Virus record (IMG/VR): IMGVR_UViG_3300027751_000004
Span: 32,001-96,000 of that record
DNA length: 64,000 bases
Reading direction: 5' to 3' (one strand)
DNA from: a virus
Taxonomy: Duplodnaviria > Caudoviricetes
A program made the position numbers and the translations under genes. The notes beneath the pieces are model-generated. The model was given only the letters and a program-made list of their open reading frames with translations, searched no databases and was not told the origin of the DNA. Each line of letters opens with the position of its first letter. The first letter of the stretch is position 1. This document shows positions 3,414-29,443 of the stretch, in pieces.

Positions 3414-3614
3414 TTAGACCCTCGCCTTTTGTATTCTTCGAACCATTTCTTTTTTAACAAGACCTTTGTGTAGTTTAACTGACTCACTAGCACCCAATTC
3501 AATTAACTGAGTTCTTGTAAGTTCCATCAACTCTTCATCAGTTTGTTTCGTTTTTAGATCATTTAATTCGCTGTTACAAAATAAGTCTTTAATAGATTTC
3601 AAAAAGTTTAACAT
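3414..3614 (-). CDS. Small protein with one Rho-N/HeH-like module
   Basis: LMELTRTQLIELGASESVKLHKGLVKKEMVRRI resembles the C-terminal module of the neighbouring gene. Confidence 0.55.
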   Translation of the reverse strand: MLNFLKSIKDLFCNSELNDLKTKQTDEELMELTRTQLIELGASESVKLHKGLVKKEMVRRIQKARV

Positions 3615-4558
3615 TATATTACCTCACTGTTACGATAAGCATACTCAATAGCCGAGTTTGCCTCTAATTTAATTGGTCGTTTTTCATACCAATTGCCTGT
3701 TTCCCGATCCAATTCCCGCATAAGTATTTCAATCTCAGAGTCTGTGATCGGATAACCTTTGCGGATAGCATTGAATGCGAGAGAAACCATAAACTGGTAC
3801 ATCTTATGATACCAACCAGTTTCAGAAATAATACGATACTCAGCCAACATCTGCTTATTTACAAATGGGCAGTCGTAAATACCATTCCAGTTATATTTAT
3901 TCTTATTCTCTAGCTTAGTTTTGCGATGAGCAATAACTTCTTTCTGTAATTCTTCAGGTAAACGGTCGAGAAAGTTGTTACCTGTTTTCTTTTCAATATA
4001 AGGATGCTTACTGAGAAGACTATCGATACCAATATCTCCGCCAGAACGTGTAAAGAAAAAACTATATGACCCAGAATAATCTGCAGGGATATAGTACATT
4101 CTACTTAGATCTTTAGTTTGACGATCGGAGAGATTACCTATCTCTGTATTCAAAGCATGCCAGAAGTGTTTGATTTTATCAGCAGGAACGTGTTTGTCTA
4201 ATTTAAATACTAATCTGAATTTAGGTTTATCTTCTGTGCTACTCGCAGTAGAGTAACACATATAGTACCATTCAGGAGGGACTATCGAGTTAAGTTCTTG
4301 TTTAAGATCACCTTTAAATTCATGTTCATCGACATCTACTGCGCACCACCCCGCCCATGCAGTAACGTTTACATTTCTTCTAGTCGTATTTGGTTCATAA
4401 ATTGCGGGTGAGATTAAGTAAGCATCATGCTTATTCTCTACTGCAGCTTTACTCAACCCAAGAAACGTATTTTCAAGATATTCCCACTTCTCGAAGTTCA
4501 TACGCTTATGAGTTTCATTATCGAAACGATTTTTAAATATAGTTAAACAATAATCCAT
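3614..4558 (-). CDS. AEP-superfamily primase/primase-polymerase-like protein
   Basis: Acidic motif AVDVD, YSTASS..KPKFRLVF, DRQTKDLSRMYYIP, helical PriCT-like C-terminus. Confidence 0.7.
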   Translation of the reverse strand: MDYCLTIFKNRFDNETHKRMNFEKWEYLENTFLGLSKAAVENKHDAYLISPAIYEPNTTRRNVNVTAWAGWCAVDVDEHEFKGDLKQELNSIVPPEWYYMCYSTASSTEDKPKFRLVFKLDKHVPADKIKHFWHALNTEIGNLSDRQTKDLSRMYYIPADYSGSYSFFFTRSGGDIGIDSLLSKHPYIEKKTGNNFLDRLPEELQKEVIAHRKTKLENKNKYNWNGIYDCPFVNKQMLAEYRIISETGWYHKMYQFMVSLAFNAIRKGYPITDSEIEILMRELDRETGNWYEKRPIKLEANSAIEYAYRNSEVI

Positions 4559-4568: not shown

Positions 4569-4598
4569 ATTATACTATAGATGATAGTATAAAGTCAA
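4569..4598 (-). promoter_or_regulatory. Sigma70-type promoter for the primase-like gene
   Basis: TTGACT-N18-TATAAT inside the 3' end of the kinase gene. Confidence 0.6.
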
Positions 4599-5115
4599 CT
4601 ACTTTTTTCGTGTCGTCAACGTTTTCGTGCCTCATTTCTTTGACACATCCTTCTTCTTCACCAAATAGAGTAACCTTGTCGCCATACTTCTCAGCAATAC
4701 GACTTACTTTAGTCTTTACAGTTTGGATGAATTTGTCACTTTGGTTTGAACCACGTTGCACGTATCTCCGTTGCCTTTCCTCGTCAGATACAGTCAAGTG
4801 AACAATAACTTTGTCGTCAAAGCAATCAAAGAAACCTCCATTATTGAGTCTGTCACCCTCGCCAATTACTACCTCGTCACGATCTTCGCTATAGTATTCA
4901 ATTGCTTTGGGTGCTACCGCCATTGATAGTCTATCGGTGCCAGAGAACGTCTCTCCTTCCTCGTACTTGCCTAGAACACGTAGGTGTCCAGAGGTATGAC
5001 TATCGAGTAGATCGATTGGTCGGTTAGTAACCCAATCATTATAGCGACTCATAAACTCTTTCATTACAGTAGACTTACCGCATCCTGGAAGTCCAATCAA
5101 ATATATTAGTTTCAT
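4570..5115 (-). CDS. P-loop nucleotide kinase of the base-hypermodification-associated type (candidate 5-hmU DNA kinase)
   Basis: GLPGCGKST Walker A, LGKY..GETFSGTDRLSMAV, IGEGDRL, RGSNQS; adjacent to an amino acid:DNA transferase. Confidence 0.8.
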   Translation of the reverse strand: MKLIYLIGLPGCGKSTVMKEFMSRYNDWVTNRPIDLLDSHTSGHLRVLGKYEEGETFSGTDRLSMAVAPKAIEYYSEDRDEVVIGEGDRLNNGGFFDCFDDKVIVHLTVSDEERQRRYVQRGSNQSDKFIQTVKTKVSRIAEKYGDKVTLFGEEEGCVKEMRHENVDDTKKVVDFILSSIV

Positions 5116-5124
5116 ATTATACCT

Positions 5125-6144
5125 TTACATAAATGCGTCAAGACCCATTACCACTTGACTGTCTTCGTTAAACATCCAATTCAATCTATCAATGTTGCCA
5201 GTTGATACAAACTCAGAATACTTAGACTTATTGATAACCCTAGTTTCATATACACGCTCGTCTAGAGTTTCCTCACGAGCCTGCCACAATACTTCCCATT
5301 CAATACCAGCCCAGTCATCTGCTTCGACTTTACGGATCTCTTCAGCAACTCTATCATTATAGTAACCCAAGTATCTACCATGATGCTCACGGAATATCTT
5401 CTTGAATGCGCAGAGAGCAGTTTCCATAGTGAATGTATTTAGATCTTTATCAAGGTGAGAGAATCTACTCTTCATCTCAACTAGTATAGACTTTGCCTCA
5501 TCCTCTAGCCACTGATATTCATCTGGCGTAAGTTTAGCATCATACCAATCATCTTTACCGAGAGCCATACACAAACCATTGCGGTGAGATCTAGAACCAC
5601 CATAATCCTTTAAGAGTAAAGTCCTAGGAACGTTAGGTATATGGGCAGTATGGTTTAGATGCTGTAGGAAGAACCAAGTAGAGTATCTACCAAACTTATA
5701 GAACTTGTCTGTAACTGCGTTGTATAGGTTATCAAAGTTGACATACTCGTTATCACCCATAAGAGACTCGAACGATTCACGCTGAGATCTAGATCCAACA
5801 AACTCCGCATAGGACTTGAACATATCTGGCAAATGACCTTTTGACCACTTAGTGTCTGTTTGATATCTGAGACGTTTATAGTTCTCAGTGTTCCAAAGAC
5901 TCATGCGGTCATAGGTAGCAAGTTCGAAGTCGGGGAACTCGTTGATAAGGATCCAAGCGGTCGGCAGATAATATGTGTTGCCATATAACCAAGACAACCA
6001 TATTCTCTGCTCTGAGTTATGCTCGAATCTATCATTGAGGTAGTTAGTCATCCATACGGCAGGGTCGCAGTCTTTATATTCTACCGACCAAGCATACCAC
6101 TTTATGAATGCTTCTCTACGATTTTGTTTTAATCTATAATCCAT
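5125..6144 (-). CDS. Amino acid:DNA transferase (AADT / aG/PT-PPlase clade 2, HhH-glycosylase fold)
   Basis: DCDP, WLSWLYGNTY, KFGRYSTWFFLQHL (HhH-like), SHRNGL, METALCAFKK, RYLGYYNDR; probable start MDYRLK. Confidence 0.85.
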   Translation of the reverse strand: MDYRLKQNRREAFIKWYAWSVEYKDCDPAVWMTNYLNDRFEHNSEQRIWLSWLYGNTYYLPTAWILINEFPDFELATYDRMSLWNTENYKRLRYQTDTKWSKGHLPDMFKSYAEFVGSRSQRESFESLMGDNEYVNFDNLYNAVTDKFYKFGRYSTWFFLQHLNHTAHIPNVPRTLLLKDYGGSRSHRNGLCMALGKDDWYDAKLTPDEYQWLEDEAKSILVEMKSRFSHLDKDLNTFTMETALCAFKKIFREHHGRYLGYYNDRVAEEIRKVEADDWAGIEWEVLWQAREETLDERVYETRVINKSKYSEFVSTGNIDRLNWMFNEDSQVVMGLDAFM

Positions 6145-6145
6145 A

Positions 6146-7438
6146 TTACTCTTCAAATGCAGGAAGTACATCAACCTGAATATCTAGCTGGTGGAAGTTG
6201 ATGGTATCTTTTAGGTCTTTTAACCAAGAGCCATCTTCATGCTCAGCGATCTCCATCTTAGAAGTATAGTGAAGAACAATAGCACCTTTATCGGCACTGA
6301 CGTTTTTCATTCTACGACATATATAACCAAACGCTTGACCATGTTTTGCTTTAGACATCTGAGCATGAACAGTAGCGATATTATCCTTACCATAGTTTTC
6401 CCATTCATACCGCTCAAAGAACGCATCATCATAAGCAATGATGTTAGATTGATACTTCAGAGATGCCTCTGTTTTCTGTATGCGGTTTTGAACAGACTTA
6501 AACAAACCACTTAGCTTTTTCTTAGAGGGGATTACAAGGATGAATCTATCATAGATTAGTTTCCTTGCTCGCTCCTCTTGTAGCGGTTGCGATATATCAA
6601 GTTTCTGCTCGAGGATGAAGTTTTGCATCTGGCGTTTGATATCTTCATCGCTATTATACTCACGAATCTTATCACCCTCTTTGTTCATTAACATACCAAA
6701 GAAGTTGTAGTTCGTTTTCCTAGTTTTCTCATTAGAGCCAAACTCCGACTCGTTAATAAAGATAACAGGAGCAGTAGATATTCCTCGGACTTTCATAAGG
6801 GCAGCAGTTCGGTTGTTACCATCTAGGATAGTACGCTCGCCATCAGATTTAACCACAACTGTAATCGGGTCGAGTAACTCAGATATCTTCTCTGGGTTCT
6901 CTTCCATAGCGTTTACTAGTTTACTCACATGATGTGGCTTAATAGTTTCTACACGGACTTGGTTCTTACTGTACGATGATAACTGGTTCAAAGGCACTTG
7001 TTGAACATCGTATTTGCTACCTGCTATATTATCGGCAATTGTTTTGATTCTTTGATTCTCATCAGCAAAGGAGTTTTCGATTTCAATACCGTCAGTCTTA
7101 CCCTCGATATAATCAATAATAACTTCCTTCATCTCTGGAGTGATAAGTGCCTCGTCAACACAATGCGCATTATTCTTATAATTGTACATGAGGTCTCTGG
7201 ATACTTTGGTGCCATACTTGAGGGCAAACCACTCAAGGGTTTTTGCGATATCTAGATCTTGCTCTTTGCCCACATAGATTATACTGCGTTTGAGTAGACC
7301 ACAACTGTAGTCTTGCCAAAACTCTGGATTCTCGGATGATGAAATGTAGAATGATTTACCAGCTGGTTGTAACCCGATATACATCTTACTGGATTCAATA
7401 TTGCGATATGCATAAACATATACGTTATTAGTCAACAC
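6146..7438 (-). CDS. GIY-YIG nuclease-like domain fused to a ParB/Srx-like domain
   Basis: N-terminal YVYAYRNIESSKMYIG...YISSS...LE...YN; central NQVR...DPITVV...ILDGNNRTAA; GTG start with GGAG RBS. Confidence 0.65.
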   Translation of the reverse strand: MLTNNVYVYAYRNIESSKMYIGLQPAGKSFYISSSENPEFWQDYSCGLLKRSIIYVGKEQDLDIAKTLEWFALKYGTKVSRDLMYNYKNNAHCVDEALITPEMKEVIIDYIEGKTDGIEIENSFADENQRIKTIADNIAGSKYDVQQVPLNQLSSYSKNQVRVETIKPHHVSKLVNAMEENPEKISELLDPITVVVKSDGERTILDGNNRTAALMKVRGISTAPVIFINESEFGSNEKTRKTNYNFFGMLMNKEGDKIREYNSDEDIKRQMQNFILEQKLDISQPLQEERARKLIYDRFILVIPSKKKLSGLFKSVQNRIQKTEASLKYQSNIIAYDDAFFERYEWENYGKDNIATVHAQMSKAKHGQAFGYICRRMKNVSADKGAIVLHYTSKMEIAEHEDGSWLKDLKDTINFHQLDIQVDVLPAFEE

Positions 7439-7472
7439 GTGCTTTTCTCCTCTATTCGGTCAAGCAAGTAGT

Positions 7473-7501
7473 ATTATATAATAAAATGACACAAAAGTAA
7501 A
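7473..7501 (-). promoter_or_regulatory. Sigma70-type early promoter for the GIY-YIG/ParB gene
   Basis: TTTACT-N17-TATAAT with an upstream A-tract. Confidence 0.8.
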
Positions 7502-7509
7502 GGTTTTTT

Positions 7510-8043
7510 TTAAAAGAATTCTGTGAGTCCTTCTGGCTCTACAAACACTTCAACACAACCACCTTTACCTTTCTTGTTTACTGCAGCAAAGATTGTTGGG
7601 TCTGATATATCATAGTAACCATCTTGAAATGTATTATTGATACGGAACATTGATAATTGACATCCGCTTTTCTGTTTACCTAGAAACTGAAACCCACATT
7701 TCTCGTAAAAGGCAACAGCATCTGGCTCGGACGAAACACGGTAGTATAGTGCTTTATCTGCCTTTGCCCTTTGTAAAGATTCGATACAAAGTGTTCTACC
7801 GACCCCTTTACCTCTATGATTAGCAAAAGTATGAAGCAGTTGAAGGTTCGCTACTTTTGGCGAACGTTTTGACACAGTTGTGATGATTGCTCCGAGTAAG
7901 TCGTTACCGTCCCAGAGACCAATGCAATAATCCCACTGCCCCTGCATGTTCGCCTTTGTTACAAATGTTTTGGCGAACTTGTCTGCAGGATCAGTAGTAA
8001 TGGCAGAAGTAAATTCTTCTGCTGTAGTTTTACGCAACTTCAT
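7510..8043 (-). CDS. GNAT-family N-acetyltransferase
   Basis: Acetyl-CoA motif A LHTFANHRGKGVGRTL and motif B AVAFYEKCGF; probable start MKLRK. Confidence 0.88.
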   Translation of the reverse strand: MKLRKTTAEEFTSAITTDPADKFAKTFVTKANMQGQWDYCIGLWDGNDLLGAIITTVSKRSPKVANLQLLHTFANHRGKGVGRTLCIESLQRAKADKALYYRVSSEPDAVAFYEKCGFQFLGKQKSGCQLSMFRINNTFQDGYYDISDPTIFAAVNKKGKGGCVEVFVEPEGLTEFF

Positions 8044-8902
8044 GGTATTCACGCTTTTTAGTTCCACGTTCTTTAGCCCATTTAGTTTTCTGATGACCGA
8101 CCCACTGGTTCAAATTCCAATCAAATGGAGGGAACTCATAGTCTCCTTCCGATAGTATTTCTTTTACGCTTGGACCACCGTTTAGGGCAGCATCTATAAA
8201 TGCTTCAACGAAGCGGAACATAGACTCCATATGCTTGCGTTCAGTTGTAGCACGGAAGCAACGGAACTCTATCGTACCAGTGTGTTTCATACAATAGGTA
8301 TTGATAGCATATCTGAAAGGTCTACCCATAGAAACTCCATCCTTACCTGCTGCGTGTAACTTGATAAAGTGATCAAAGTCGGTAGCAAGATTCATGATAT
8401 TGTTTGCCATGTATTCAGGCATTTGACGACCACCATCATACTTCATGTACATCTTAGCACCTTTTGCTTTCTTCATTGAACCAGATTCGTGAAAGAGTCC
8501 GCAGTTCTCGACAACATCAGCTTGGTTATCTTTGATGTACTTTATCAAACGCTTCAGAGCGTCTAGATCTTCAGTCAGCTTTGGTACATAAACATGTAGG
8601 TGAGAATGGCTGAGGCAGTTAGAAGTAGGTTCGCAACCCTGATCAATAAACCACTGTTTAACCTCTTGGATACGGTCTACCTGTCCTTCCCAAGTTTTAG
8701 TCGGTTTGGTATTAACCTCACCGCCAAACGGAGGGTCTTCACCTAGAGGGTCGCAGGCAACGTATCTATAAGGATCTCGTAGATTAACTACGTCAGTCTC
8801 GGAGTATTCCCAACTACCAAGATGTTCGGGTATTTCTAACCTGCGGTCAATATCGCCCCATTCAATTTCATATCCCCAAGTAAAGTCTTTTTTATCATAC
8901 AT
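8030..8902 (-). CDS. Amidoligase (COOH-NH2 ligase, glutamine-synthetase-like fold)
   Basis: FTWGYEIEW, GGEVNTKP, HSHLHV, RYAIN...GTIEFRCF. Confidence 0.85.
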   Translation of the reverse strand: MYDKKDFTWGYEIEWGDIDRRLEIPEHLGSWEYSETDVVNLRDPYRYVACDPLGEDPPFGGEVNTKPTKTWEGQVDRIQEVKQWFIDQGCEPTSNCLSHSHLHVYVPKLTEDLDALKRLIKYIKDNQADVVENCGLFHESGSMKKAKGAKMYMKYDGGRQMPEYMANNIMNLATDFDHFIKLHAAGKDGVSMGRPFRYAINTYCMKHTGTIEFRCFRATTERKHMESMFRFVEAFIDAALNGGPSVKEILSEGDYEFPPFDWNLNQWVGHQKTKWAKERGTKKREYHEVA

Positions 8903-8914
8903 AACAATTTACCT

Positions 8915-9529
8915 TTAAGGTTGTAAGTCTTCACCAGCATAATCTACTCGGCTGGTTTCTAAAGTTTTAAATCCACTACGTTTAATAATATCTTGAGTTG
9001 ATGAGTATATCTTACCTCGATCAACTTCGGCTGTCCAAAGTGGACGTTTACCATTACGCATATATTGTATACCATTTCTGTCCAAAAGTAAAGCAGAAAT
9101 TGATGCGGTTTCCCAAGCAGTAGGATCTGGTCGATGAAACAGTAACTCAGAGTCGTTTGCCGTTTCACAATCTAACTCGTATAGATCTTTCCAGTTCTCT
9201 GGTAACTCTTGAGAGATAACCCCATTATGAACAAGAGATAAACCCTCATCCGCAATAGGTTGATTGAATCTAAGGTCAGAAGTGCTATAACGACAATGAG
9301 CAACTGCCTTCATATCTCCATTCTCGTCAACCCAGTCTGCTGGATTATTGTTCTTCATAAACTCAACAGCATCTACTGGCTCTTTAATGGTATGAACCTT
9401 ACCCTCTTTCAGGTAAGATACGCCAGTGGCATGCTTGCCTCTAATCCTAGATTCAATGAATAGGTGACGGATAGAAGATATATCCTTAGCAGTTACGCCA
9501 CTTATCTCAATACCAATTACTGCGCACAC
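8915..9529 (-). CDS. Class II (Ntn) glutamine amidotransferase
   Basis: Cys at position 2 (MCAVIG), RGKHATG, HCRYST, NQPI, VHNGVI, NDSE; GTG start overlaps the upstream TAG. Confidence 0.9.
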   Translation of the reverse strand: MCAVIGIEISGVTAKDISSIRHLFIESRIRGKHATGVSYLKEGKVHTIKEPVDAVEFMKNNNPADWVDENGDMKAVAHCRYSTSDLRFNQPIADEGLSLVHNGVISQELPENWKDLYELDCETANDSELLFHRPDPTAWETASISALLLDRNGIQYMRNGKRPLWTAEVDRGKIYSSTQDIIKRSGFKTLETSRVDYAGEDLQP

Positions 9530-10941
9530 TAGAAGAACTCCTCCAAACTTGCTTTTTCTTCATATGCTTCAGGGTGGTACTTTTCTACCATTTCTCGACC
9601 ACCAGTAGATTCAAGATACTCGTACCATTCATCAGAGTCCCACATTGAAGGTGATACGCCATTCCATCGATCACGCCACATAGGATGCTCTTTGTTAAGT
9701 CTACGATGATCAACAAACTGTCTGCGGATTACCTCATAGTCATACGAGCCAAGCTGTAGCATATCCTCGCGGAAGTAGAATACTAGCGACATACGAAGCA
9801 TATCATCTTCACCTGAGTCAGGTGCTTCGATCGGAGTGTTACCGTGAATGATTCTCATATTATCTACAAGCAGTAGATCTCCTGGACGAGCATTAATAGC
9901 CATACGAACTTCAGGGCAACAGAGATAACCGCCTTTCCAATCTGTACCATCTTTGGTAACTACTGTTAGATTGCTGAAACCCTCATTCAAAGAACCAGCA
10001 TCACGATGACAAGCCATACGTGCGTTACGATCTTTGGTGGTTGTATTTACAGTAATCGTAGTAAAGGTAGTATCCTCGCCAATAAGGAATCGTTTGTCCA
10101 TTTGCTCAGCGCACTTCTGTTGGCGACCATATCGTACAGGTAGCAAACGTTTGAACTCAGCTTCTAGTTTACGAGCAAACGGATAGCATTTCTCAAAGGT
10201 TGTGCGATTATGCTCAGTGAACGAAGTCGGTCTACCAAACGGAATACGAGGATACCTACCATAGAAGCCAGCAATACCAGACCACAATGCTGCTGCGTAA
10301 GAAGTTTGAGAGATGTAGCTATCATATATTTTCTTAGCCGTAACTGATGCTTCACGCAAGTCAGCATCTCTTAGTTCTTCCATTACAGTGTTAAAGAATG
10401 TGCGGTAATCGCCATAATCATTCTCAACTTTAGATCGTAACCAAACAGAACCACGTGCTTCGTTATTACCGCTACCAAGATACTTTTCTTTGATAGCTTC
10501 AAGAGGATCGGAGCCATCAAGAGATAGCGGTTGACCATCCATGTAATACTTGAGGACTTCTACCTGATAGGGAGTTACCCAATCACGCCCACCACTTTTC
10601 TCTACTCGCTCACCTGCTGCCAAACCACGATTATGAGATTCAACCGCAGCATCGAACAAACCATCAAACGCACCTGATTGCTCGTCTGATGTGAATGTGT
10701 TTTTACGGAACTTGAATGCTATTCTATCTTCATTAAGTTCGCCAACCTCACCATCTACATTAGATTCCGCTGGTAAGTATACGTCGGCATCACTATCAAT
10801 TACGATATCGTAGCTTTCTTCCGTAGCAAATTTACCGAGCAAGTCGTCTTGGTTCTCGACAAAAAGAGCAACATATACGTCTTGCCCCTCATCGCCTTTG
10901 AACTTCTGCCACTTGCGACCATTTATATCAATTATTTCCAT
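9529..10941 (-). CDS. TET/JBP-like 2-oxoglutarate/Fe(II) dioxygenase
   Basis: FTTITVN, HxD (CHRDAG), GGYL..PE, RPGDLLLVD, distal His (IHGNTPI), 2OG-binding RxS (RMSLVFYFRE). Confidence 0.85.
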   Translation of the reverse strand: MEIIDINGRKWQKFKGDEGQDVYVALFVENQDDLLGKFATEESYDIVIDSDADVYLPAESNVDGEVGELNEDRIAFKFRKNTFTSDEQSGAFDGLFDAAVESHNRGLAAGERVEKSGGRDWVTPYQVEVLKYYMDGQPLSLDGSDPLEAIKEKYLGSGNNEARGSVWLRSKVENDYGDYRTFFNTVMEELRDADLREASVTAKKIYDSYISQTSYAAALWSGIAGFYGRYPRIPFGRPTSFTEHNRTTFEKCYPFARKLEAEFKRLLPVRYGRQQKCAEQMDKRFLIGEDTTFTTITVNTTTKDRNARMACHRDAGSLNEGFSNLTVVTKDGTDWKGGYLCCPEVRMAINARPGDLLLVDNMRIIHGNTPIEAPDSGEDDMLRMSLVFYFREDMLQLGSYDYEVIRRQFVDHRRLNKEHPMWRDRWNGVSPSMWDSDEWYEYLESTGGREMVEKYHPEAYEEKASLEEFF

Positions 10942-10964
10942 AATATTCTCCTAATACAACGCAT

Positions 10965-10993
10965 ATTATACTATACTTCATACTAAATGTCAA
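10965..10993 (-). promoter_or_regulatory. Perfect-consensus sigma70 promoter heading the modification operon
   Basis: TTGACA-N17-TATAAT, followed by an AGGAG RBS. Confidence 0.85.
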
Positions 10994-11372
10994 GCACTTT
11001 TTTCAAATCAGGTTCAGAATAATCTGGACCCTTTAGAATCTTACCATCTTCACGATAGATGGGTTTACCATCCTCGCCCAACTTACTCATATTAGATCTT
11101 TGTACCTCACGGAAACAAGCGTCAAGGTCAATACCAAATGCGTGTCCTGCGCCATAGGTAACATATAGAATATCAGTTAGTGCGTCAGCAACCTCAACCA
11201 TATCCTTTTCTGCCATTGCTACAAATAGTTCTTGTAGTTCTTCTTTGATAAGTTCGTATCGTAGAGCAACAGTATCTAAATCTGGGAACTCAGGCGATCG
11301 CTTTACTTCCTGCCCAAAGGCATCCATAAAGACATTTACTTTGTTAAAGTTTGTTTGGTAATAGTGTGTCAT
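10983..11372 (-). CDS. MazG/PRA-PH-like all-alpha NTP pyrophosphohydrolase
   Basis: LIKEELQEL, EVADALTDILYV, EVQRSNMSK, REDGKILKGP. Confidence 0.9.
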   Translation of the reverse strand: MTHYYQTNFNKVNVFMDAFGQEVKRSPEFPDLDTVALRYELIKEELQELFVAMAEKDMVEVADALTDILYVTYGAGHAFGIDLDACFREVQRSNMSKLGEDGKPIYREDGKILKGPDYSEPDLKKVLDI

Positions 11373-13894
11373 TGAAAAAAGTCCTCTAGTGATATTTTCT
11401 CTTCTTCGTTCCAGCCGATTGCGGCAAGTATTGGTCTAACAACTTCCAAGAATGCTTTGTCGAACTGGAGGTCATAGTCAACGTATTTATGCAGCTTTAA
11501 ATCTTCGGGTAAGAAGTCTGGGAATGCGATTACATTTTCTTTAATAGGGTTTGGTACTTTAAGATAGGCAAACTTTATCTTTTCGCCATCTTTGATTGTT
11601 TGATACTTACGACCCAAGCCATTAGTCTCAATTTGATTATTGTAGAGTAATGACCCACGAACATGAATAGGTGTACCCTTCCTATAGATGAGTTGGCGGT
11701 CTACCCAATTAGTTACATTAGAAACTCCACGAGGGAATGCTACATCCTCTGGCGGTAGAGTGATAAAGTAATCCTTGAACTGCTTGATTGCCATTTGGGT
11801 TGTAGCTTCATCCTGAGTTATGATAACCTTGAACAACTCTTTGAGTGCTTTACGACAAGATGCGGGAGTAGAGGATTTAACTGCTTCGATACCCATAATC
11901 TTGAGTTTAGGTTCTGCGTATTGAACACCCTCGTTATTATGTACGTTTAGTATGTAACGTTTCTTAGCAGTCCAGATACCAGCATCAGCAATAGCTTCAC
12001 GAGCCATGACCATCTTGTTCTCATAAGCATCCATATACTCAGCTAGGTCGCCATAAGAATTTTCTAGCATAGGCTCGAACTGTTCAGAACAGACCTTATC
12101 AAGCATCTTTACAGTTTCAGCTTTGGGTAAGTCTTTGAAGTATTTATCGACGAGAGGTTCAAAGTTAATATACAACGAATCAGTATCGATGGCGATAACA
12201 TAATCTTTATCTTCTCCGATAATCTTGGACATGAATCGATTAACTGCCTGCTCTGCCCACCTGATCGATAACTGACCTGATAGCGTAATACCCTCAGCAA
12301 TACGCAGGTCAAAGTAACGGAACCAGCGATTACCAATAGCACCATAGAGAGAATTCATCATAATCTTGATAGCCATCTGTTCATTATCGAGAGTGGATAT
12401 CTTTTTCTCTAGTTGATATACTTCGGTCTTTTTAGTTTTATCAACGCCCTCTAGTTCCTGCGTGGCATCTAGCATCTGACGCTTTACTTGTTTCCTGCCA
12501 GCATATAGACTACCAACAACCTCAGGAATAACTCCACAAATATCCTTACGATAATGCGAACCATTTGCTGCCATGGTACAGTCGGGGCGTGCACTTTGAG
12601 GTTTACGACCCGACAAACAAGCATCAACGTTCACCCCCATAGTCGCATCATTTACGATAGTCTCGGGAGACATATTGTACTGCATAATCAGGTGAGGGTA
12701 TAGAGAGTTTAAGTCAAAGGAAACGACCCAAGCATGGCGACCAACCATAGGACTTTTAACAAAACCTCCAGGAAAGTCAGTCTTCATCTTTTCTTGTTTG
12801 GGCGGTACTGCTGTTTTCTTTTCGTATAGTTCTCGATAGAGGAACGTATCCCAAATACCAGTAGTACCAAACGCATCGCTGTAGTTTACCCCAGCTTTGT
12901 ACGCCAGAGTCATACACAAGGTGATGAGACCCATCTTATCTTCTAGTCGGTCAACTAGTTCTACGTCTTTGATATTATAGTCAACGAACTTCTGGTGATC
13001 GTGTTTGTACAGAGTAAAGAGATTACCATACTCCTCATAGGATAACTTGTTCTCCCCCAAAACAACATGGGCAATATGGTCAAGTTTGTATGACTCTTCG
13101 GCAGTATAGGTAAACTTCCTATAGAGATCCAAATAATCTATCTGCTCAACACCTTTGATCTCAAACTTCTGCTCGGTCTTACCTTTGATAGTAACCTTGC
13201 GCTCGTCGATTTTACCCCAAGGTGATAGTTTCTTAGCCATATCCTGACCAATCACTTTAGTTATTCGGTTGATCATATAGGTCATATCAAACAGAGTTGA
13301 GTTCCAACCAGTAATTACATCTGGCATGAACCGAGCATTAGACCAATGGGTAACAAACTCCATAAGTAATCTGGCTTCGGACTCGCACTTCTTGTAGATA
13401 ACTTGATTGTCCTGCATAATGGACTTAGAGGTATCGTAGTCGCCCAGACCCCAAACATAATATATGTTATCGATATTATTCTTAAGAGTAATTGTGATTA
13501 CTGGGTGATCTGCATATTGAGGTTCAGGGAATCCCTCGTCGGAAGCGACCTCAATATCGATGGTAGTGACATTGATAATGTCACGATTGAACTCAATAGT
13601 TCCTGGATACTTTTCCTGAACATACTGAGCAATGTAATTTGTATTGCCGTGAATCTTGAAGTTAGAGGTATCCCCATATTGCTGGATAAACTCCCTTGCT
13701 TCACGCATTGTATCGAAGTCTATTGGCTTGAGTGGTGCACCTGTTAAGGATTTCCAATCACCGCCTTCAGCTGGGACATATAGGGTTGGTGAGAAACGGA
13801 CACGTTCGGAATATTTATTCCCATCACGATATCCACGGACAAGTATGTCGTTAGAGAATCTGCTAACTGAGGTGTAGAAAGTATTATTCATCAT
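11369..13894 (-). CDS. 43: Family B DNA polymerase (T4 gp43-like)
   Basis: ExoI DIEV, SFDLNSLYP, KIMMNSLYG, AIDTDS, KKRY; uninterrupted; C-terminal SLEDFF clamp-binding tail. Confidence 0.98.
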   Translation of the reverse strand: MMNNTFYTSVSRFSNDILVRGYRDGNKYSERVRFSPTLYVPAEGGDWKSLTGAPLKPIDFDTMREAREFIQQYGDTSNFKIHGNTNYIAQYVQEKYPGTIEFNRDIINVTTIDIEVASDEGFPEPQYADHPVITITLKNNIDNIYYVWGLGDYDTSKSIMQDNQVIYKKCESEARLLMEFVTHWSNARFMPDVITGWNSTLFDMTYMINRITKVIGQDMAKKLSPWGKIDERKVTIKGKTEQKFEIKGVEQIDYLDLYRKFTYTAEESYKLDHIAHVVLGENKLSYEEYGNLFTLYKHDHQKFVDYNIKDVELVDRLEDKMGLITLCMTLAYKAGVNYSDAFGTTGIWDTFLYRELYEKKTAVPPKQEKMKTDFPGGFVKSPMVGRHAWVVSFDLNSLYPHLIMQYNMSPETIVNDATMGVNVDACLSGRKPQSARPDCTMAANGSHYRKDICGVIPEVVGSLYAGRKQVKRQMLDATQELEGVDKTKKTEVYQLEKKISTLDNEQMAIKIMMNSLYGAIGNRWFRYFDLRIAEGITLSGQLSIRWAEQAVNRFMSKIIGEDKDYVIAIDTDSLYINFEPLVDKYFKDLPKAETVKMLDKVCSEQFEPMLENSYGDLAEYMDAYENKMVMAREAIADAGIWTAKKRYILNVHNNEGVQYAEPKLKIMGIEAVKSSTPASCRKALKELFKVIITQDEATTQMAIKQFKDYFITLPPEDVAFPRGVSNVTNWVDRQLIYRKGTPIHVRGSLLYNNQIETNGLGRKYQTIKDGEKIKFAYLKVPNPIKENVIAFPDFLPEDLKLHKYVDYDLQFDKAFLEVVRPILAAIGWNEEEKISLEDFFQ

Positions 13895-13901
13895 ATAGTA
13901 T

Positions 13902-13930
13902 ATTATACCGCATTTAATGGTAAAAGTCAA
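13902..13930 (-). promoter_or_regulatory. Sigma70-type promoter for gene 43 (probably leaderless mRNA)
   Basis: TTGACT-N17-TATAAT; ATG lies 7 nt after the -10 box. Confidence 0.8.
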
Positions 13931-14894: not shown

Positions 14895-15560
14895 CTAGGA
14901 TTTCTTTTGAGACTTAATCCATTTAGCAGCAATTTTGTTTTCAGGTGGTTTTTTAGACCACACCATAATCTTCTTGTATGCACTCATAGTCCCACGTTCA
15001 ACGTCTGAACTAGTAGAGTTATCAACAATCGTTAGTCTATCACGGAATAGATTCTGAAATTTACCTATATTCTTTTGTACGTCTTTCCACATATCTTCTA
15101 CGCTATCGTCTGGTAGAGATCTTGATCTGTTTCTGTTACGCTCAAGGGCAGTATCTAAATCGGTATTTACAAAGATCATAGCAACAGCATACCCAACTTT
15201 ACGAAGCATGTCAACCTGTTTCTTGATCTTTGCATAGTCCTTACCAGTGCCGTCTATCACTAGACCAAGTCTACCCTCGACGGCACGTTCCATCTTTTTA
15301 CCAGTAAGTGCCTTTGACTTGGCACGTACATCTTGACCTTGAACCGAAAAGAGAGCTTCTGGATCCATAGTCAACCCAGCTTTCTTTAATCCTTTCTCAA
15401 AAGCATCGTCTGAGTTTATTAGTTTAAACCCTAATGCTTGTAATGCGGTCTTACCGACCACAAAAGACTTACCACTTCCTGGACCACCAGCCAAAAATAC
15501 TGCCTTGAAAATGGCAGGATCGTTTACTCCTTCCTCGAGATAAGTCTTAAAACTTAGCAT
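14895..15560 (-). CDS. P-loop kinase (zeta-toxin/AAA_33-like)
   Basis: AVFLAGGPGSGKS, LINSDD, LVIDGTG, ALERNRNRSRS. Confidence 0.8.
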   Translation of the reverse strand: MLSFKTYLEEGVNDPAIFKAVFLAGGPGSGKSFVVGKTALQALGFKLINSDDAFEKGLKKAGLTMDPEALFSVQGQDVRAKSKALTGKKMERAVEGRLGLVIDGTGKDYAKIKKQVDMLRKVGYAVAMIFVNTDLDTALERNRNRSRSLPDDSVEDMWKDVQKNIGKFQNLFRDRLTIVDNSTSSDVERGTMSAYKKIMVWSKKPPENKIAAKWIKSQKKS

Positions 15561-17710: not shown

Positions 17711-20700
17711 CTATGTATTTCCATATTCCGCAACAACAACTTCTATATATGCTGTTTCCGGATCTACCGATGAATCAGTCCCAGAATATACTATATAGTA
17801 AGTTCCTGGGGTAGTAAATTGAGTGTCCCAGCGTAACATCCCAGTTTTCGAGACTGGGTATTCATCTTCATCATAGCTATAATGTCCTGATTCGATAAAG
17901 TTTGACTTATATATTCGGTGACCATAATCTGTGTGGCTTGACATGACTGTCCCTTTGACATAATTATCACCAGCATCAGGATACGCCATACCTATCCCTA
18001 ATGGGTTAGCATCCACATCATCCATATCTATATCGCCACCTGTTTTACTACTTTTCACAATTAGAAAATCTGTAGATGAGATTTCTGAGTTATCATAATT
18101 ATCTATCAGCCAATTTTTCTGGGCGGTATCGGGTAACTCATTAGGTAATTCAGGCATATACGATAAATTTAGCACGGCTCCAACTTCCACATAAATTTGA
18201 GTTCTTGCAGCCTGTCCAGCTGCTGTATTACCGCCTTTTGCATCGGAATAAGAAAAGTTGGGTACTCCATTATTAGCATCCCGATATTTTCGGGATCTTG
18301 CAACAAGGGTATCGTCTTCCAACCTCTGTATATAGAAGCTGTAAACATTTGGGTATGTAATTAATCCTTGGAATTTTGTTCTAAAGAATATTTCGTCTAT
18401 TATATGATTCTGAGACAAGCTGAGCAAACCTGCTCCAGAATCGTCAACAGGTTGAACTCCATGTATTCTTAGTGAATGCACCCTTTCAAATTTAGAGGCT
18501 GCTCCAATTTCCAGATTATCTAACTCTGTTCTTTTACCATCATATCCCCAATGGTTTGAACCAACATCACTATTCCAATTACCCGTGTCACTAGGATAAT
18601 TATATGCGAACCTAGTGACGATTTTTCCAGCTACTTGAGCACCAATTTGGTTACCAATTCTTATAGGTGTTACATAGGGTGACCTAGAACCATACTTATC
18701 TTTATTTCCGAATCCTTCCCGATCGACATCTGTCAAGAATTTCACCGAAGATAAGTGAACCTCACCATCAGCATCTTCATGCCTATTCGGGTTAGTTCCA
18801 TCTGAAACTGACTGGCTACTGTTATTATAATCGAATGGACCAGAATCCCCTTTATTGTCACCCCTAAAGTCTTGATTCAAAGACTTAAACCCATGAATTG
18901 TTGTTAAGTCATCTAGTATAGTAACGTCAGGGATATAGGTTGTTTCACTGGTAGGTTCTTCGGTTAATGATTCTCTACCCACGATTTCACTATTAACCAA
19001 TTCAACATTTATTCCTGTGACTTCGTAAAAACCATACAAATTGTAATTAGCTTCGCTAGGACCAGCACTTGTGTCAGTGAATAATAATGTTTCGCTATAA
19101 CCTTCAGCTGGTATATCAATTACTGTAAAACCAGCCTGCCCGATATCTTGAGACGCTATTCTAACAAACGCATCTAGGCTTGAATCTAGATCACCGTTAG
19201 GATCCCTAAATCTGACATGAATATCAGTATTTGTTGGATAGAAGAAATTTCTGCCGTTAGGCGAAATAGAAGTTCCCGTCCAATCAACAGCACCAAACTG
19301 AATTTGTTTTCTTTTTCCATCAGTAGATCTGAATCTCAACCCACGAGTACCATCCACTTTATAATGCACTTCAGGGGCAATCCCTTGCTGAACAAAACTA
19401 GCGGTGGCGGAGGGGTTTAATGTACCAAGAAAAAGATTCCTGGCAAGACTATTCCCTCTTAAGTGAGAAGGGATTTCGTTTTGTCCTTGTACTGTAAAAG
19501 TCGTAGCACCATCGGCTAATCGATCATGAGTTGCCTGATATGTAGGGTCTGCGTCAGGATAATCTTCAAATCTTAAGGATACATCTGTATGTATTGGCTC
19601 TCCGTGAAATTCGGCAATTTCGCTGAATGTAACATCTGGTTCTTTCCCAAGGCTCATCCTATTGTCTATAAGTTCTTTGCCGTCAAGTAAGCTATTGTCT
19701 CGGGCGTACTTATCAAATAACATTTCATTTCTTGGGTATTCTGAATGATCTTGTAGAGTAATCGAGAACATTCGCCAATCCTGATCTGCGATATCCCCAT
19801 TACCTCCAGGATCTCTTGCAGGTTTAAATCTGGATACTAATCTTTCAATACGTTTTCCGTTGTTATCTAGAACAGACTCAGTTCCTTTTAGTAAGAAATC
19901 GTTATCTTCCCTAAGTTCGTTAAAAACTGTCCTACAATAAGTACCATCTGGGTACTCAAAATTCATTAGGCTACCGCCATTACTAACATATAATTCGTAA
20001 ATCGGGCAATCGTCGTCTAAAGGATCTTTATCAACGCAAACTACCCTAAATGTGTAGCCTAAGTCTACAAAATCTCCATATGGTTGATCTGTGTCCATCA
20101 AGTTGTCGACCCCGATGCCCTCAACGTCTTTGGCTTCTGCAAGCTGACCTTGATGCGCACCAGATGCTTCATATGGCAATAAGCTAGAAGAAAACACTGT
20201 ACCTGGATAGTTATTGTCCTGAGCCCAATGGTCTCGGTGTCTCCAAAAACCTTCATGATCTATATGTCTACTATCAAAACCGTAACCGCTGAAGTATGGT
20301 AGTTTCCTAGAGGGAAACCCATATGGGCTAAAGAACTCAGTTTCAAACATTACAGGGATATCTTTGTAAGCCTTAAATTTACTTTGTGCTCCAGGAGTCT
20401 TAATTGGTTGATAAACTGAATTTGCAGAAGAACCCCCTGTCGGGGCGTTATTCGCATAGCTTACAGAACTTTTAGTTTCTACTTGTGAGCCAAAATGTAT
20501 GACATGGGGGGCTAGGTCATCCCTTTCTCTATTATTAACTGCAAAAAAGGTTTGTGGATGAAGAGGCGGTCTATACCGTTGAATATCCCATTTGAAAGAT
20601 AAAGCCAACATTGTATTGGCGTATCTAGATACTGGTCTATATCTAGATGGATAATGTTTGTGGAAGATTGAATGGGCGTCGCAACCTATAGAGATATCAG

Positions 20701-23080
20701 ATAGATAGTGATCAAAGGTTCCGCTTCTCCAGTAATGTGTAGTGCCACCATTTTCTAATTGCTCCCTCAGGTCTTTTTCGTTTTCGTTGGGAGCAATGTC
20801 ATAGATATGTTCTACCATAGGATTGAGAGCAACATGAGAACCCTGAGATGGCCAATATATAGTATCAGTATTAATACCTTTGGCTCTTATAATTTTTAAA
20901 CCAAGATCTTCTGCGGAGTTTTTGCCTCTGTCGTTGTCATAGTCAATTGTTTTTCTAGGATACTTCTGGCCAATGTCAATCAGATCATCTAAGTATGCGC
21001 CACCGCCAGCAGTGTCAAAGGTGCTTCCGGTTGTTGAAGACATTTCTCCAAATCTTATTGTGGGAGTTGTTTGTAAACCACTAACGAAAGGCATTGTCTC
21101 TGGTTCTACATTATAGGTTGATTCTGACAGGAGTGGGTCGGATCCCACACCATCAGAATCGGAAGTGTCAGTTTCTGTAAATAGTTTTACTGAACTTAAC
21201 CCATTGTCGCTACCATAATCGCTTTCTTCCGAGGTCAACTCATAAAGATCTCCGCCAATAGTGAAATTACTGAGCCTATTCATCGTGCTTACTTCAGTCT
21301 GAATATCGCTCGCTACTGCCCCTATCGTACAGTAAGAACCGCTATGGAATTGGTCGTTCAAAGAGATAACCTTAGCATCATCTGGAACGGTACAATAATC
21401 ATCTGGAGTTTCAGGTGCATCGACAGAACTTGGAGTGTCGGCATCAGCATAAGATTTTATGATAACTTGGTCATCATCGCCATTTACACCCACAAGGAAG
21501 TACAATGACGCTTCCAACGCTGGCGGTGCTCCAATACCACCAGGAATCGACGTAGATGAACCTGTCCTATTAGTTGTTTGGATGTTAATATATGGGTCTC
21601 CAAGAGAAAAAACATTATCTCTAGAATTATTGTTAAGTACACTTTCGGGGACATTACCCCAATAAGCTATAATAACCCCTGTACCTACATCTCTATCTGA
21701 AGCATAAACCACTTGTTTATTTGGCAAAGAGAAAGGGTTGGCTGTATTTTCACTTGAAATTATTTGAGGGACGCCATAATTACTTTCGAAATCATCAACA
21801 AAGCGTCGAGCTACGCTAACTTGACTGAAGTCAGCTTTTAGGATAAATACTGCAGTAGTGTGACCAACGTCCCCAGAATAATCTAAACCTGATTTATAAA
21901 CGTCCAAAGGTTGCATATTAATATGCGCTCCACCATAAATCGGCGTGCGCCAATTGAAAACTTTTCTGACTTCCCCTTGCTTCATCCCCGCATCGGTAAA
22001 TCTTTCAACCCTAACTTTTTTTGCGTCACTATCAGAAAGCAATTTGTGCTCCACCTTTGTAACGCCAGCTAACATAAACCCTTTTATGTCACTAGAAGTT
22101 TCGTTCCTTTCTGGTTGATGTGGATATTCATATCTTGGGAAAGTAGTCCCTCCCAAATATTCATACCTAAGTTGGCTAATTTGAATATATGTCTTACTCG
22201 CCTCCTTCCAAGATCCATCTGCAGGGATTGTAAAGTATGCTGGATCTCCATCCGCCTCCAAAAACTCTCCACCATCGTGAAAAGCAGGACCACCCCAAGT
22301 GAAAGTATGGATATTATTTACATCAGTTGCTCTAATTTCATCGTATCTATCCGCATCTTTAGTACCAGTCCTAAGTGATGGCGGTATGGTAGTTAAATCT
22401 TCATGAGCGTACAAGAATGGAAATTTAACACCCATCATGTTTACGGTGTTGCCATTGGATCTAGCGTCAGCGTAAGGGAATGTGGTAAAATCATCAGAAG
22501 AGTCTGTGTAAAACGTGATTTCTCCTACACGAGACCTTAGATAAAGGGATACATAAACAGCGTTATTTTCTTTGGTTATTCTGATTTCCGATTCTAAACC
22601 AAAATGTTCGAACAAGTAGTCAAATTCGTTATTATGCCCAAAATGGTTAGTACATATACCATTTCTATCTTTTGATATATGGTATGTTCTGATTCTAGTT
22701 TCTGGGTCGTATTCTGTATTTTCTTGCCATCTGTTTGGGTTCTCTTGCGACAGTTGGCTAGCGAATGGTTTCATCCGCTTCATAGTAATCCCATCAGAAT
22801 CAGATCTGACAGGAGTGTACGGTTGATGTATCCAATTGGTTAAATCACCTGCGGGGTTATTAAAGTAGATAGCATCAGTGAACCCTAATCGTGAGAAAAC
22901 ATCGTCTGCTAGATCATTGCCTTTATAAAATATAGGTTTGGGGTCATATAACCCAGTGCCGATTTTAGTTTGAGAGTATGAATTAAGGGATACTGATGAC
23001 GTTACATTGTTAAAGTTATCTCTAACTTCGGATAACTTTATAGGTGTACCAGCATTTTTCCCGCCTACTTTATTACTCAT
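17711..23080 (-). CDS. 1789-aa hypothetical protein, probable virion adhesin/structural protein
   Basis: Long ORF rich in D/G/S/T/Y; N-terminal PIKLSEVRDNF...VSLNSY resembles fibre-attachment motifs; late promoter upstream. Confidence 0.6.
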   Translation of the reverse strand: MSNKVGGKNAGTPIKLSEVRDNFNNVTSSVSLNSYSQTKIGTGLYDPKPIFYKGNDLADDVFSRLGFTDAIYFNNPAGDLTNWIHQPYTPVRSDSDGITMKRMKPFASQLSQENPNRWQENTEYDPETRIRTYHISKDRNGICTNHFGHNNEFDYLFEHFGLESEIRITKENNAVYVSLYLRSRVGEITFYTDSSDDFTTFPYADARSNGNTVNMMGVKFPFLYAHEDLTTIPPSLRTGTKDADRYDEIRATDVNNIHTFTWGGPAFHDGGEFLEADGDPAYFTIPADGSWKEASKTYIQISQLRYEYLGGTTFPRYEYPHQPERNETSSDIKGFMLAGVTKVEHKLLSDSDAKKVRVERFTDAGMKQGEVRKVFNWRTPIYGGAHINMQPLDVYKSGLDYSGDVGHTTAVFILKADFSQVSVARRFVDDFESNYGVPQIISSENTANPFSLPNKQVVYASDRDVGTGVIIAYWGNVPESVLNNNSRDNVFSLGDPYINIQTTNRTGSSTSIPGGIGAPPALEASLYFLVGVNGDDDQVIIKSYADADTPSSVDAPETPDDYCTVPDDAKVISLNDQFHSGSYCTIGAVASDIQTEVSTMNRLSNFTIGGDLYELTSEESDYGSDNGLSSVKLFTETDTSDSDGVGSDPLLSESTYNVEPETMPFVSGLQTTPTIRFGEMSSTTGSTFDTAGGGAYLDDLIDIGQKYPRKTIDYDNDRGKNSAEDLGLKIIRAKGINTDTIYWPSQGSHVALNPMVEHIYDIAPNENEKDLREQLENGGTTHYWRSGTFDHYLSDISIGCDAHSIFHKHYPSRYRPVSRYANTMLALSFKWDIQRYRPPLHPQTFFAVNNRERDDLAPHVIHFGSQVETKSSVSYANNAPTGGSSANSVYQPIKTPGAQSKFKAYKDIPVMFETEFFSPYGFPSRKLPYFSGYGFDSRHIDHEGFWRHRDHWAQDNNYPGTVFSSSLLPYEASGAHQGQLAEAKDVEGIGVDNLMDTDQPYGDFVDLGYTFRVVCVDKDPLDDDCPIYELYVSNGGSLMNFEYPDGTYCRTVFNELREDNDFLLKGTESVLDNNGKRIERLVSRFKPARDPGGNGDIADQDWRMFSITLQDHSEYPRNEMLFDKYARDNSLLDGKELIDNRMSLGKEPDVTFSEIAEFHGEPIHTDVSLRFEDYPDADPTYQATHDRLADGATTFTVQGQNEIPSHLRGNSLARNLFLGTLNPSATASFVQQGIAPEVHYKVDGTRGLRFRSTDGKRKQIQFGAVDWTGTSISPNGRNFFYPTNTDIHVRFRDPNGDLDSSLDAFVRIASQDIGQAGFTVIDIPAEGYSETLLFTDTSAGPSEANYNLYGFYEVTGINVELVNSEIVGRESLTEEPTSETTYIPDVTILDDLTTIHGFKSLNQDFRGDNKGDSGPFDYNNSSQSVSDGTNPNRHEDADGEVHLSSVKFLTDVDREGFGNKDKYGSRSPYVTPIRIGNQIGAQVAGKIVTRFAYNYPSDTGNWNSDVGSNHWGYDGKRTELDNLEIGAASKFERVHSLRIHGVQPVDDSGAGLLSLSQNHIIDEIFFRTKFQGLITYPNVYSFYIQRLEDDTLVARSRKYRDANNGVPNFSYSDAKGGNTAAGQAARTQIYVEVGAVLNLSYMPELPNELPDTAQKNWLIDNYDNSEISSTDFLIVKSSKTGGDIDMDDVDANPLGIGMAYPDAGDNYVKGTVMSSHTDYGHRIYKSNFIESGHYSYDEDEYPVSKTGMLRWDTQFTTPGTYYIVYSGTDSSVDPETAYIEVVVAEYGNT

Positions 23081-24919: not shown

Positions 24920-25346
24920 ATTTCTCCACCTCAATGCCACATTGATGTAAAAACTCAATACCTTGATTAGTCCTGTAATCATTCTTATATATTACTTTCT
25001 TAATCCCAGATTGATAGATCAACTTGGCGCATTCTATACAAGGAGAATGAGTGATGAATATATCAGCACCCTCTCCGCTTTCTGACGACTTAGCAAGTTT
25101 TGTTATTGCGTTTGCTTCTGCGTGTAACACTTCTGGTTTTGTTTGTAAAAACTGAATGTCGCCATTTGGCCATTTAATTTCTTCTTCACAGGTATTATCC
25201 CAACCAGATGGCATACCATTATAGCCAATGGAGATGATGCGATCATCTTTTACGACAATCGCACCAACTTGTAGCTTTTTAGCTGTACTGAGTTTTGAGA
25301 ACCTTTCGGCTACGTCAATATATGCGGATACGAACTTATCCTTCAT
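24906..25346 (-). CDS. cd: dCMP deaminase
   Basis: VGAIVV, GYNG, HAEANA, PCIEC zinc motifs. Confidence 0.95.
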   Translation of the reverse strand: MKDKFVSAYIDVAERFSKLSTAKKLQVGAIVVKDDRIISIGYNGMPSGWDNTCEEEIKWPNGDIQFLQTKPEVLHAEANAITKLAKSSESGEGADIFITHSPCIECAKLIYQSGIKKVIYKNDYRTNQGIEFLHQCGIEVEKYEQS

Positions 25347-27710: not shown

Positions 27711-27738
27711 GTTGTTCTCCATAGTTAAAGTTGGCAAT

Positions 27739-29344: not shown

Positions 29345-29386
29345 AATATAATCTCTCTCTAATCAATTAACTCATTCAATACACAT

Positions 29387-29415: not shown

Positions 29416-29443
29416 GGGTTTTTTAAACTTTTTTGATCTTTTT

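Follow-up and report, generated by a model that had tools for sequence, protein, structure and literature searches.

Into which base would thymine be converted by a phage that encodes a dioxygenase, a kinase, a DNA transferase, a glutamine amidotransferase, an amidoligase and an acyltransferase side by side, and in which order would these enzymes act? This question is raised by a gene cassette in a 64,000-nucleotide stretch of viral DNA (positions 32,001 to 96,000 of IMG/VR record IMGVR_UViG_3300027751_000004; hereafter the window), in which seven minus-strand open reading frames (ORFs) fill positions 10941-4570 with intergenic gaps of 0-72 bp or overlaps. The encoded classes are a TET/JBP dioxygenase, a class II glutamine amidotransferase (GATase), an amidoligase of the GS/GCS fold, a GNAT acyltransferase, a 430-aa protein, an amino acid:DNA transferase (AADT) and a P-loop kinase. 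The source is an uncultured marine T4-like myophage (major capsid, portal, terminase, gp43-47 and gp55 were recognised by inspection), and the window belongs to a linear viral contig of 120 kb with an estimated completeness of 66%.

The initial annotation had read the cassette as hydroxylation of T, pyrophosphorylation and attachment of an amino acid, followed by amidation and N-acetylation. Its starting point, a post-replicative thymine hypermodification begun by the TET/JBP enzyme, was supported by our analysis and we regard such a pathway as very probable. The later steps probably follow another order.

Probable thymine oxidation and a predicted GATase-AADT pair

The TET/JBP gene (9529-10941, minus strand like all genes of the cassette) encodes a 5-methylpyrimidine dioxygenase of 470 aa that matched PF12851 (Tet_JBP) at 3e-16, with 59.4 bits against a cut-off of 34.9. 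The iron triad and the arginine for 2-oxoglutarate (H312, D314, H366 and R383) were invariant in 26 aligned homologues. Neither the source contig nor five cassette-bearing relatives of 96-100% completeness carried a C5-methyltransferase or a ThyA-like gene of the hydroxymethylase type, so that, judged from gene context, T in finished DNA is likely the substrate; the earlier preference for T over 5-methylcytosine (5mC), drawn from the window, is thereby strengthened. ThyX was present in the source contig and in all four relatives tested.

The kinase (4570-5115, 181 aa) is of the 5-HMUDK type (Pfam Ploopntkinase3, 2e-12; 47.7 bits against PF18751) and has Walker A, G49-x-Y51, D61 and E86-G87 in common with PaMx11 gp49 and ViI gp243, at 17% identity. 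The pyrophosphorylated intermediate proposed before had to be corrected, since kinases of this type yield a monophosphate, 5-phosphomethyl-deoxyuridine (5-PmdU), which is the substrate of AADTs; the latter replace the phosphate (Lee et al. 2021, PMC8989533).

The AADT (aGPT-Pplase2; 5125-6174, probable start ATG at 6144) matched Pfam ADDT at 7e-19, with 68.9 bits against PF18724. Residues D37, E251, T252 and C255, the last three forming the motif E251-T252-x-x-C255, were found in 75/75 sequences, and D107 is listed with them. The GATase (8915-9529, 204 aa; Pfam GATase_6, 6e-9) is of the class II (Ntn) type, and its Cys2, R30, H78-x-R80-Y-S-T, H101-N-G and D126 were invariant in 75 homologues. 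When the two proteins were modelled together, the predicted complex reached a score of 0.89, compared with 0.01 for the best control; the runs shared at least 97% of contacts, with a partner pLDDT of at least 89. In the benchmark of this score, 58 of 80 solved complexes and 2 of 110 mismatched pairs came up to this mark, figures that are approximate here, with our own alignments in use. The predicted interface joins GATase residues ringing the active site to AADT segments 49-55, 77-90 and 289-295 and shows above-average conservation (0.85 vs 0.74 and 0.82 vs 0.63). The contacting AADT loop 49-55 is missing in the AADTs of ViI, Cr30, PaMx11, PhiW-14 and Simon, and phages Cr30 and Simon encode no GATase gene.

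Inheritance of the genes pointed in the same direction. Loci collected with the amidoligase as anchor repeatedly showed the order TET-GATase-amidoligase-GNAT-AADT-kinase; anchoring on AADT or GATase, which removes the bias of amidoligase anchoring, returned TET, GATase, AADT and kinase as a fixed core. Each of the 41 AADT-anchored loci whose upstream flank measured at least 4.5 kb contained the GATase, which was also kept, catalytic residues intact, in the 33 of 87 cassettes without amidoligase. Partial correlation of pairwise identities over 56 six-gene cassettes gave 0.63 for GATase-AADT and -0.10 for GATase-amidoligase, despite the adjacency of the latter pair. The cassette order was conserved across more than 100 distinct contigs, and IMG/VR alone holds more than 560 relatives of the cassette. 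Thus the gene set is indeed inherited as a unit, as previously assumed, with a fixed core and swappable tailoring genes.

Comparison of the AADT pockets concerned the nucleophile. Lysines that hold the glycine carboxylate are known in the AADTs of YuA and PaMx11 (PMC13458397, PMC11472151; the pocket was defined in PMC13458397). In a motif-anchored comparison, the positions of PaMx11 K150 and K248 corresponded to F168 and A/S256 in 75/75 cassette AADTs, which places the enzyme outside the glycine:DNA transferase subtype (YuA/M6/PaMx11) as defined by these lysines. Searching the PDB with the AADT sequence or its alignment brought up no relative; hence there was no evident AADT-GATase template, and motifs instead of a structure served to map the pocket. 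Pocket residues were invariant across cassettes with differing tailoring genes, which fits one small common nucleophile. Based on comparison and modelling, we consider it probable that GATase and AADT together perform an amination with ammonia taken from glutamine. An order in which an amino acid is attached first and then amidated by GATase and amidoligase is not supported, because the AADT, and not the amidoligase, is the enzyme with which the GATase is inherited and co-varies and which it is predicted to bind; in addition, both glycine-carboxylate lysines are absent from the AADT.

Swappable tailoring genes and clamp-like tails

The amidoligase (8030-8902, 290 aa) was assigned to the GS/gamma-GCS fold by motifs and by its AlphaFold2 (AF2) model. 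Five of the six enzyme families that had been named for hidden Markov model searches matched in Pfam; Amidoligase_2 gave 0.007, short of the cut-off. The AF2 model (pLDDT 91) matched YbdK (Z 10.7, rmsd 4.3, 214 aligned) and glutamine synthetase. Its motifs are E12-x-E14, E62, H99-x-H101-x-H103, R197 and E212-F-R214, among which ExE, E62, HxHxH and EFR were invariant; alignments of homologues thus bore out the claim of intact catalytic motifs for TET, GATase, amidoligase, AADT and kinase. Within this gene, a seawater contig (run X13) has a diverged segment of the same length at window positions 8476-8806, which suggests allele exchange in the population.

The GNAT gene (7510-8067, probable start ATG at 8043; Pfam Acetyltransf_1, 2e-9) has the motif A HRGKGVG, and its product co-varies with the amidoligase (0.41 in the same partial correlation over 56 six-gene cassettes). 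Among 87 distinct cassettes the amidoligase was present in 54 and absent in 33, and 40 had the amidoligase together with the GNAT type of the window. Cassettes free of the amidoligase carried other GNATs, which form a separate family or a long separate branch; the GNAT tree came from a quick search and has long branches, and was used solely to show that the ligase-free GNATs are divergent. In a set of 136 cassettes, the slot between GATase and AADT was otherwise filled by a second GNAT family (30), by an amidoligase subtype with a low-molecular-weight (LMW) phosphatase (14), by a divergent GNAT alone (6) or by nothing (1). The complete genome G004 has the core, and the amidoligase is nowhere in this genome. 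An empty slot was seen in a 96% complete genome with TET-GATase-AADT-kinase alone (L202:8001-9637), for which unacylated 5-aminomethyl-dU (5-NmdU) is the predicted end product.

A parallel to the tailoring slot came from the cultured phage Simon (PQ683277, L102:4864-12543), whose layout is M6/PaMx11-like: a thymidylate-synthase-like gene, a kinase, a Gly-type AADT and a FAD oxidoreductase of the type that unmasks 5-aminomethyl-dU. An amidoligase homologue and an LMW phosphatase stand where the acetyltransferase would be, and there is no GATase. The Simon ligase shares motifs with the phosphatase-linked amidoligase subtype, and a pair like that of Simon fills the slot in the 14 T4-like cassettes mentioned above. 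On the simplest reading of a ligase without a GATase, the same amine would be reached either via glycine and a lyase or via GATase and AADT, and the ligase would acylate it. Likewise on the simplest reading, the partner enzyme would finish the attached acid, the phosphatase acting on a phosphorylated acid and the GNAT on an amino acid. A search for further Simon-like loci found none. Simon itself probably bears an undescribed acylated 5-aminomethyl-dU and would be the easiest handle on the ligase chemistry. In Vibrio phage 2.275.O (L101:7866-13074), a distant amidoligase homologue immediately precedes QueF, QueC, an Ntn hydrolase and FolE; judged from this neighbourhood, amines of 7-deazaguanine (preQ1) may be further acylation substrates of the ligase family.

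Matches in other cultured phages were of a different kind. Their TET matches adjoin glycosyltransferase-type genes or a GATase-free AADT. Their GATase matches were rejected as relatives, being about 25% identical, unrelated LUZ24-like genes. In phage C48C1 (OQ984149, L001:12001-15448; also L013:5329-9489) a TET 64% identical to that of the window is followed by a 344-aa gene and a UDP-galactopyranose mutase (PF03275, 6e-52), a neighbourhood that hints at galactofuranosylated 5-hydroxymethyluracil (5-hmU). The cultured Caulobacter phage Cr30 (L003:11956-20849) has a TET, a loop-less AADT and a kinase, with no GATase, as well as a weak match to a TET-associated glycosyltransferase; the label 'SNF2 DNA repair protein' has been given to its TET, and likewise in DLP6 and S-CBWM1.

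Three enzymes of the cassette end like the family B DNA polymerase gp43 (11369-13930, minus strand), whose C-terminus SLEDFFQ served as the reference clamp peptide. In the TET an extension of about 85 aa terminates in SLEEFF, the AADT ends in GLDAFM and the GNAT in GLTEFF, close to a pattern S/G-L-x-x-F-F; the clamp-interacting peptide of T4 gp43 is SLDFLF (PMC12746103). Such tails were found in 103/105 TETs, 89/107 AADTs and 39/76 GNATs (the GNAT figure includes some spurious matches), and in 0/113 GATases, 1/57 amidoligases and 4/97 kinases. In the source contig 7/103 ORFs matched, five of them being gp43, gp55, TET, GNAT and AADT. The gp45 sliding clamp (27033-27737, minus strand; PF09116, 2e-11) is the predicted docking platform for TET, AADT and GNAT, and the tails suggest that the modification takes place behind the replication fork. 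Since the GNAT carries the tail in the manner of the DNA-acting enzymes, it too may act on DNA. Whether the amidoligase gains a clamp tail of its own where the GNAT is absent was also tested, and this idea failed. Clamp tethering would offer an explanation for the inactivity of some phage TETs expressed on their own.

Proposed order of reactions and its rivals

The order that we lean towards runs from T over 5-hmU, 5-phosphomethyl-U and 5-aminomethyl-U to an N-acyl amide and its acetylated product. DNA would be made with ordinary dTTP, ThyX being present. By analogy to characterised homologues, the TET/JBP enzyme would hydroxylate T to 5-hmU and the P-loop kinase would convert this to 5-phosphomethyl-U. 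The GATase-bound AADT, with Cys255 as catalytic residue, is then predicted to swap the phosphate for glutamine-derived ammonia, giving 5-NmdU in one step; PaMx11 reaches the amine via glycine and a FAD lyase. With ATP, the amidoligase may couple this amine to a free carboxylic acid, which is probably an amino acid, and the GNAT may acetylate the attached group. The pathway would ride on the gp45 clamp, and its likely purpose, as for other T modifications, would be protection from host nucleases. More tentatively, we propose that the GATase-AADT heterocomplex is a glutamine-dependent DNA amidotransferase within a clamp-borne post-replicative line, that from there, in hundreds of aquatic T4-like phages, swappable acyl-ligase modules lead to a family of N-acyl-aminomethyl-uracil bases not yet described, and that gp45 perhaps takes the activating part that falls to ParB in other phage T-dioxygenases.

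Several points weigh against this order. The complex score of GATase and AADT is the model's own confidence, which supports binding and is no demonstration of it. Identity correlations are inflated by the shared inheritance of the core genes (raw values were 0.50 for TET-GATase and 0.59 for kinase-GATase), and the pairs share ancestry and are not independent. We know of no characterised AADT that uses ammonia. The glycine lysines are likewise absent from the ViI serine transferase, at 27% identity the nearest of the characterised AADTs, and therefore the pocket does not single out ammonia. Binding of TET, AADT and GNAT to gp45 is deduced from the motif. The Simon parallel is one cultured genome with a single unannotated UNVERIFIED record. 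The loci were best hits to window proteins and form a biased sample, and searches of cultured phages found the full cassette in none. Finally, 5mC and T are oxidised about equally well in vitro by characterised 5mYOXs (PMC13229309).

It is rather unlikely, in our view, that the AADT installs an amino acid (e.g. O-serine, as in ViI) while the GATase feeds ammonia to the amidoligase, which amidates the carboxyl, and the GNAT acetylates the amine. Such an order would agree with the adjacency of GATase and amidoligase in most cassettes, with the classical use of ammonia by GS-fold ligases and with the ViI enzyme being the nearest characterised relative; it does not account for an intact GATase in the 33 amidoligase-free cassettes, for its co-variation with and modelled position on the AADT rather than the ligase, or for the Simon ligase, which does without a GATase. 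We give the same small weight to a scheme in which the core makes 5-NmdU and the amidoligase and the GNAT work in parallel, or in which the GNAT receives a soluble acyl donor from the ligase; the already known 5-AcNmdU (299 u) would then be the main product, or else a mixture would result. Here the roughly 36 cassettes with a GNAT alone in the slot, predicting 5-AcNmdU as in PaMx11, and the tail-less amidoligase speak in favour. However, the GNATs are different ones in cassettes without the ligase, and the GNAT found beside the ligase varies together with it; this suggests that this GNAT takes a product of the ligase as its substrate.

That GATase, amidoligase and GNAT build a soluble amine (e.g. 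an acylated polyamine or a glutamyl derivative), which the AADT installs last, appears improbable. The AADTs of PhiW-14 and SH-Ab 15599 do install diamines (PMC8989533, PMC13458397), and GS-fold ligases often act on small molecules; on the other hand, the clamp tail of the GNAT is like those of the DNA-acting enzymes and the AADT pocket, invariant whatever the tailoring genes, fits one small nucleophile. Least of all do we expect that the dioxygenase acts on 5mC or a non-DNA substrate, or that the genes do not form one pathway. The source contig is just 66% complete, 5mYOXs can oxidise 5mC (PMC13229309) and tests of some clade C enzymes showed no activity (PMC8256090), but the five near-complete relatives have no C5-methyltransferase, homologues of AADT and kinase act on 5-hmU DNA, and the cassette order is kept in more than 100 distinct contigs.

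If the preferred order with amination by GATase and AADT is true, DNA would join the substrates of glutamine-dependent amidotransferases and a base would probably be added to those known; moreover, four genes would suffice to place a primary amine on thymine in ordinary DNA, which would be useful for labelling.

Genomic setting, passenger gene and known systems

The cassette directly follows the genes for DNA polymerase and a MazG-like protein. At the 3' end of the MazG-like gene, a perfect sigma-70-type promoter by consensus match (TTGACA-17-TATAAT, 10965-10993, minus strand) is followed by an AGGAG ribosome-binding site, and it was the sole 12/12 site in 13.5 kb. Weaker consensus sites amounted to 43, compared with 36.8 +/- 5.9 in shuffles, and therefore only the perfect site and its position are informative. 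ORF layout and this site agree with what the initial annotation described, a perfect promoter in front of seven packed co-oriented genes next to the polymerase and MazG-like genes. A second promoter-like site, TTTACT-17-TATAAT (7473-7501, minus strand), is a weak consensus match (10/12) that precedes the gene for the 430-aa protein. The source contig turns up in marine metagenomes. The region was recovered at high identity in contigs of two seawater runs from 2024, which shows that it is not an assembly artefact; parts of the cassette were also covered by contigs from two RNA libraries, although contigs cannot show transcription. Elsewhere in the window, an archaeo-eukaryotic-type primase-like gene (3614-4558; PHROG 9765) with its own 11/12 promoter stands directly after the cassette, and we noted a zeta-toxin-like P-loop kinase (14895-15560), a GH19 endolysin with peptidoglycan-binding domain (25336-26202), an AAA and probable vWA pair resembling CobS/CobT (28172-31522) and a 1789-aa protein (17711-23080) that found no Pfam match.

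While six enzymes had been named correctly, the seventh gene (6146-7438, minus strand) had been left without a name. According to its structure model it is a fusion of a GIY-YIG-like domain (1-90), a ParB/Srx domain (140-256), a helical and an alpha/beta part, 430 aa in all. The N-terminal domain resembled I-TevI (Z 6.4, rmsd 3.0, 80 aligned), and the ParB/Srx domain gave Z 8.7. Of the GIY-YIG residues Y9, G22 and E69 were invariant and N86 nearly so; there was no conserved Arg and no clear equivalent of the catalytic Arg of I-TevI. A PHROG homing endonuclease match was obtained for 7/24 family members, searches of cultured phages gave no match and the ESM Atlas returned only unnamed viral clusters. 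The gene occurred in 17/87 cassettes, unrelated genes occupying the slot elsewhere, and its products shared 29% identity in a pair of phages with 98% identity between their AADTs. Searches with positive controls found it absent from the five near-complete relatives; a PF02195-based search was discarded, because PF02195 misses even the ParB domain of the window. Judged from these sequence comparisons, the gene behaves as an optional mobile passenger, homing-endonuclease-like and encoding a putative nuclease.

Two papers leave thymine-modification clusters with GATase and amidoligase unresolved, and the present comparison narrows them to a directly testable order. The gene set itself is not new, and the earlier claim of novelty was overstated: TET, kinase and AADT with amidoligase and GATase appear in PMC8989533, and T-dioxygenases from neighbourhoods with GATase, kinase and AADT were assayed in PMC13229309. 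In the literature searched, the product of the full enzyme set is uncharacterised, as had been stated; the cluster type is already published, while enzyme pairing, clamp tails and product are absent from searchable papers. Lee et al. described metavirome contigs with TET_JBP in place of a dUMP hydroxymethylase and noted co-associated amidoligases and amidotransferases, which were left unexplained (PMC8989533). The gene classes are the same as here and the TET was inferred to supply 5-hmU to kinase and AADT; in contrast, GATase and amidoligase were assigned no function there, and no product, GATase-AADT pairing or clamp tails were reported.

O'Toole et al. 2026 (PMC13229309) reported that phage 5mYOXs oxidise T in DNA and that one subclass requires a ParB partner, this subclass being consistently linked to GATases, P-loop kinases and AADTs; their survey holds about 2,500-2,900 contigs with GATase (PMC13229309; bioRxiv 10.1101/2025.08.14.668559). 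Like their clade C1 T-dioxygenases, the cassette TET has a C-terminal extension and lies beside GATase, P-loop kinase and AADT without a C5-methyltransferase, but it differs from the clade C1 description in its 470 aa and its gp45-type clamp peptide. The neighbourhood is thus that of the ParB-dependent subclass, whereas a stand-alone, co-inherited ParB is lacking. The published ParB activators have 194-240 aa with an N-terminal NBD and a dimerisation domain, and the ParB domain of the cassette is internal to the 430-aa mobile fusion, which was ruled out as such an activator by its length, its presence in 17/87 cassettes, the 29% identity and its absence in the relatives. A ParB-like effect of this protein on the cassette TET is conceivable.

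With PaMx11 (5-AcNmdU; gp49 kinase, gp46 glycine:DNA transferase, gp47 FAD lyase, gp48 GNAT) the cassette shares the kinase, an E-T-x-x-C AADT, the GNAT and 5-NmdU as proposed intermediate. PaMx11 differs in that 5-hmU is made before replication and the amine arises via glycine and a lyase, whereas the cassette has TET, GATase and amidoligase, no lyase and an AADT without the glycine lysines. ViI, a T4-related myophage, encodes with its gp247 serine:DNA transferase (5-NeOmdU) the characterised AADT closest to that of the cassette (E 5e-28), but has a dUMP hydroxymethylase and a PLP decarboxylase, and its AADT has no GATase-contact loop. T4 offers a precedent both for the docking of a DNA-modifying enzyme to the clamp and for the tail peptide: its alpha-glucosyltransferase binds gp45 (PMC13216743) and its gp43 carries the peptide (PMC12746103); the chemistry is different there, and in the cassette three modifying enzymes bear the polymerase-type tail.

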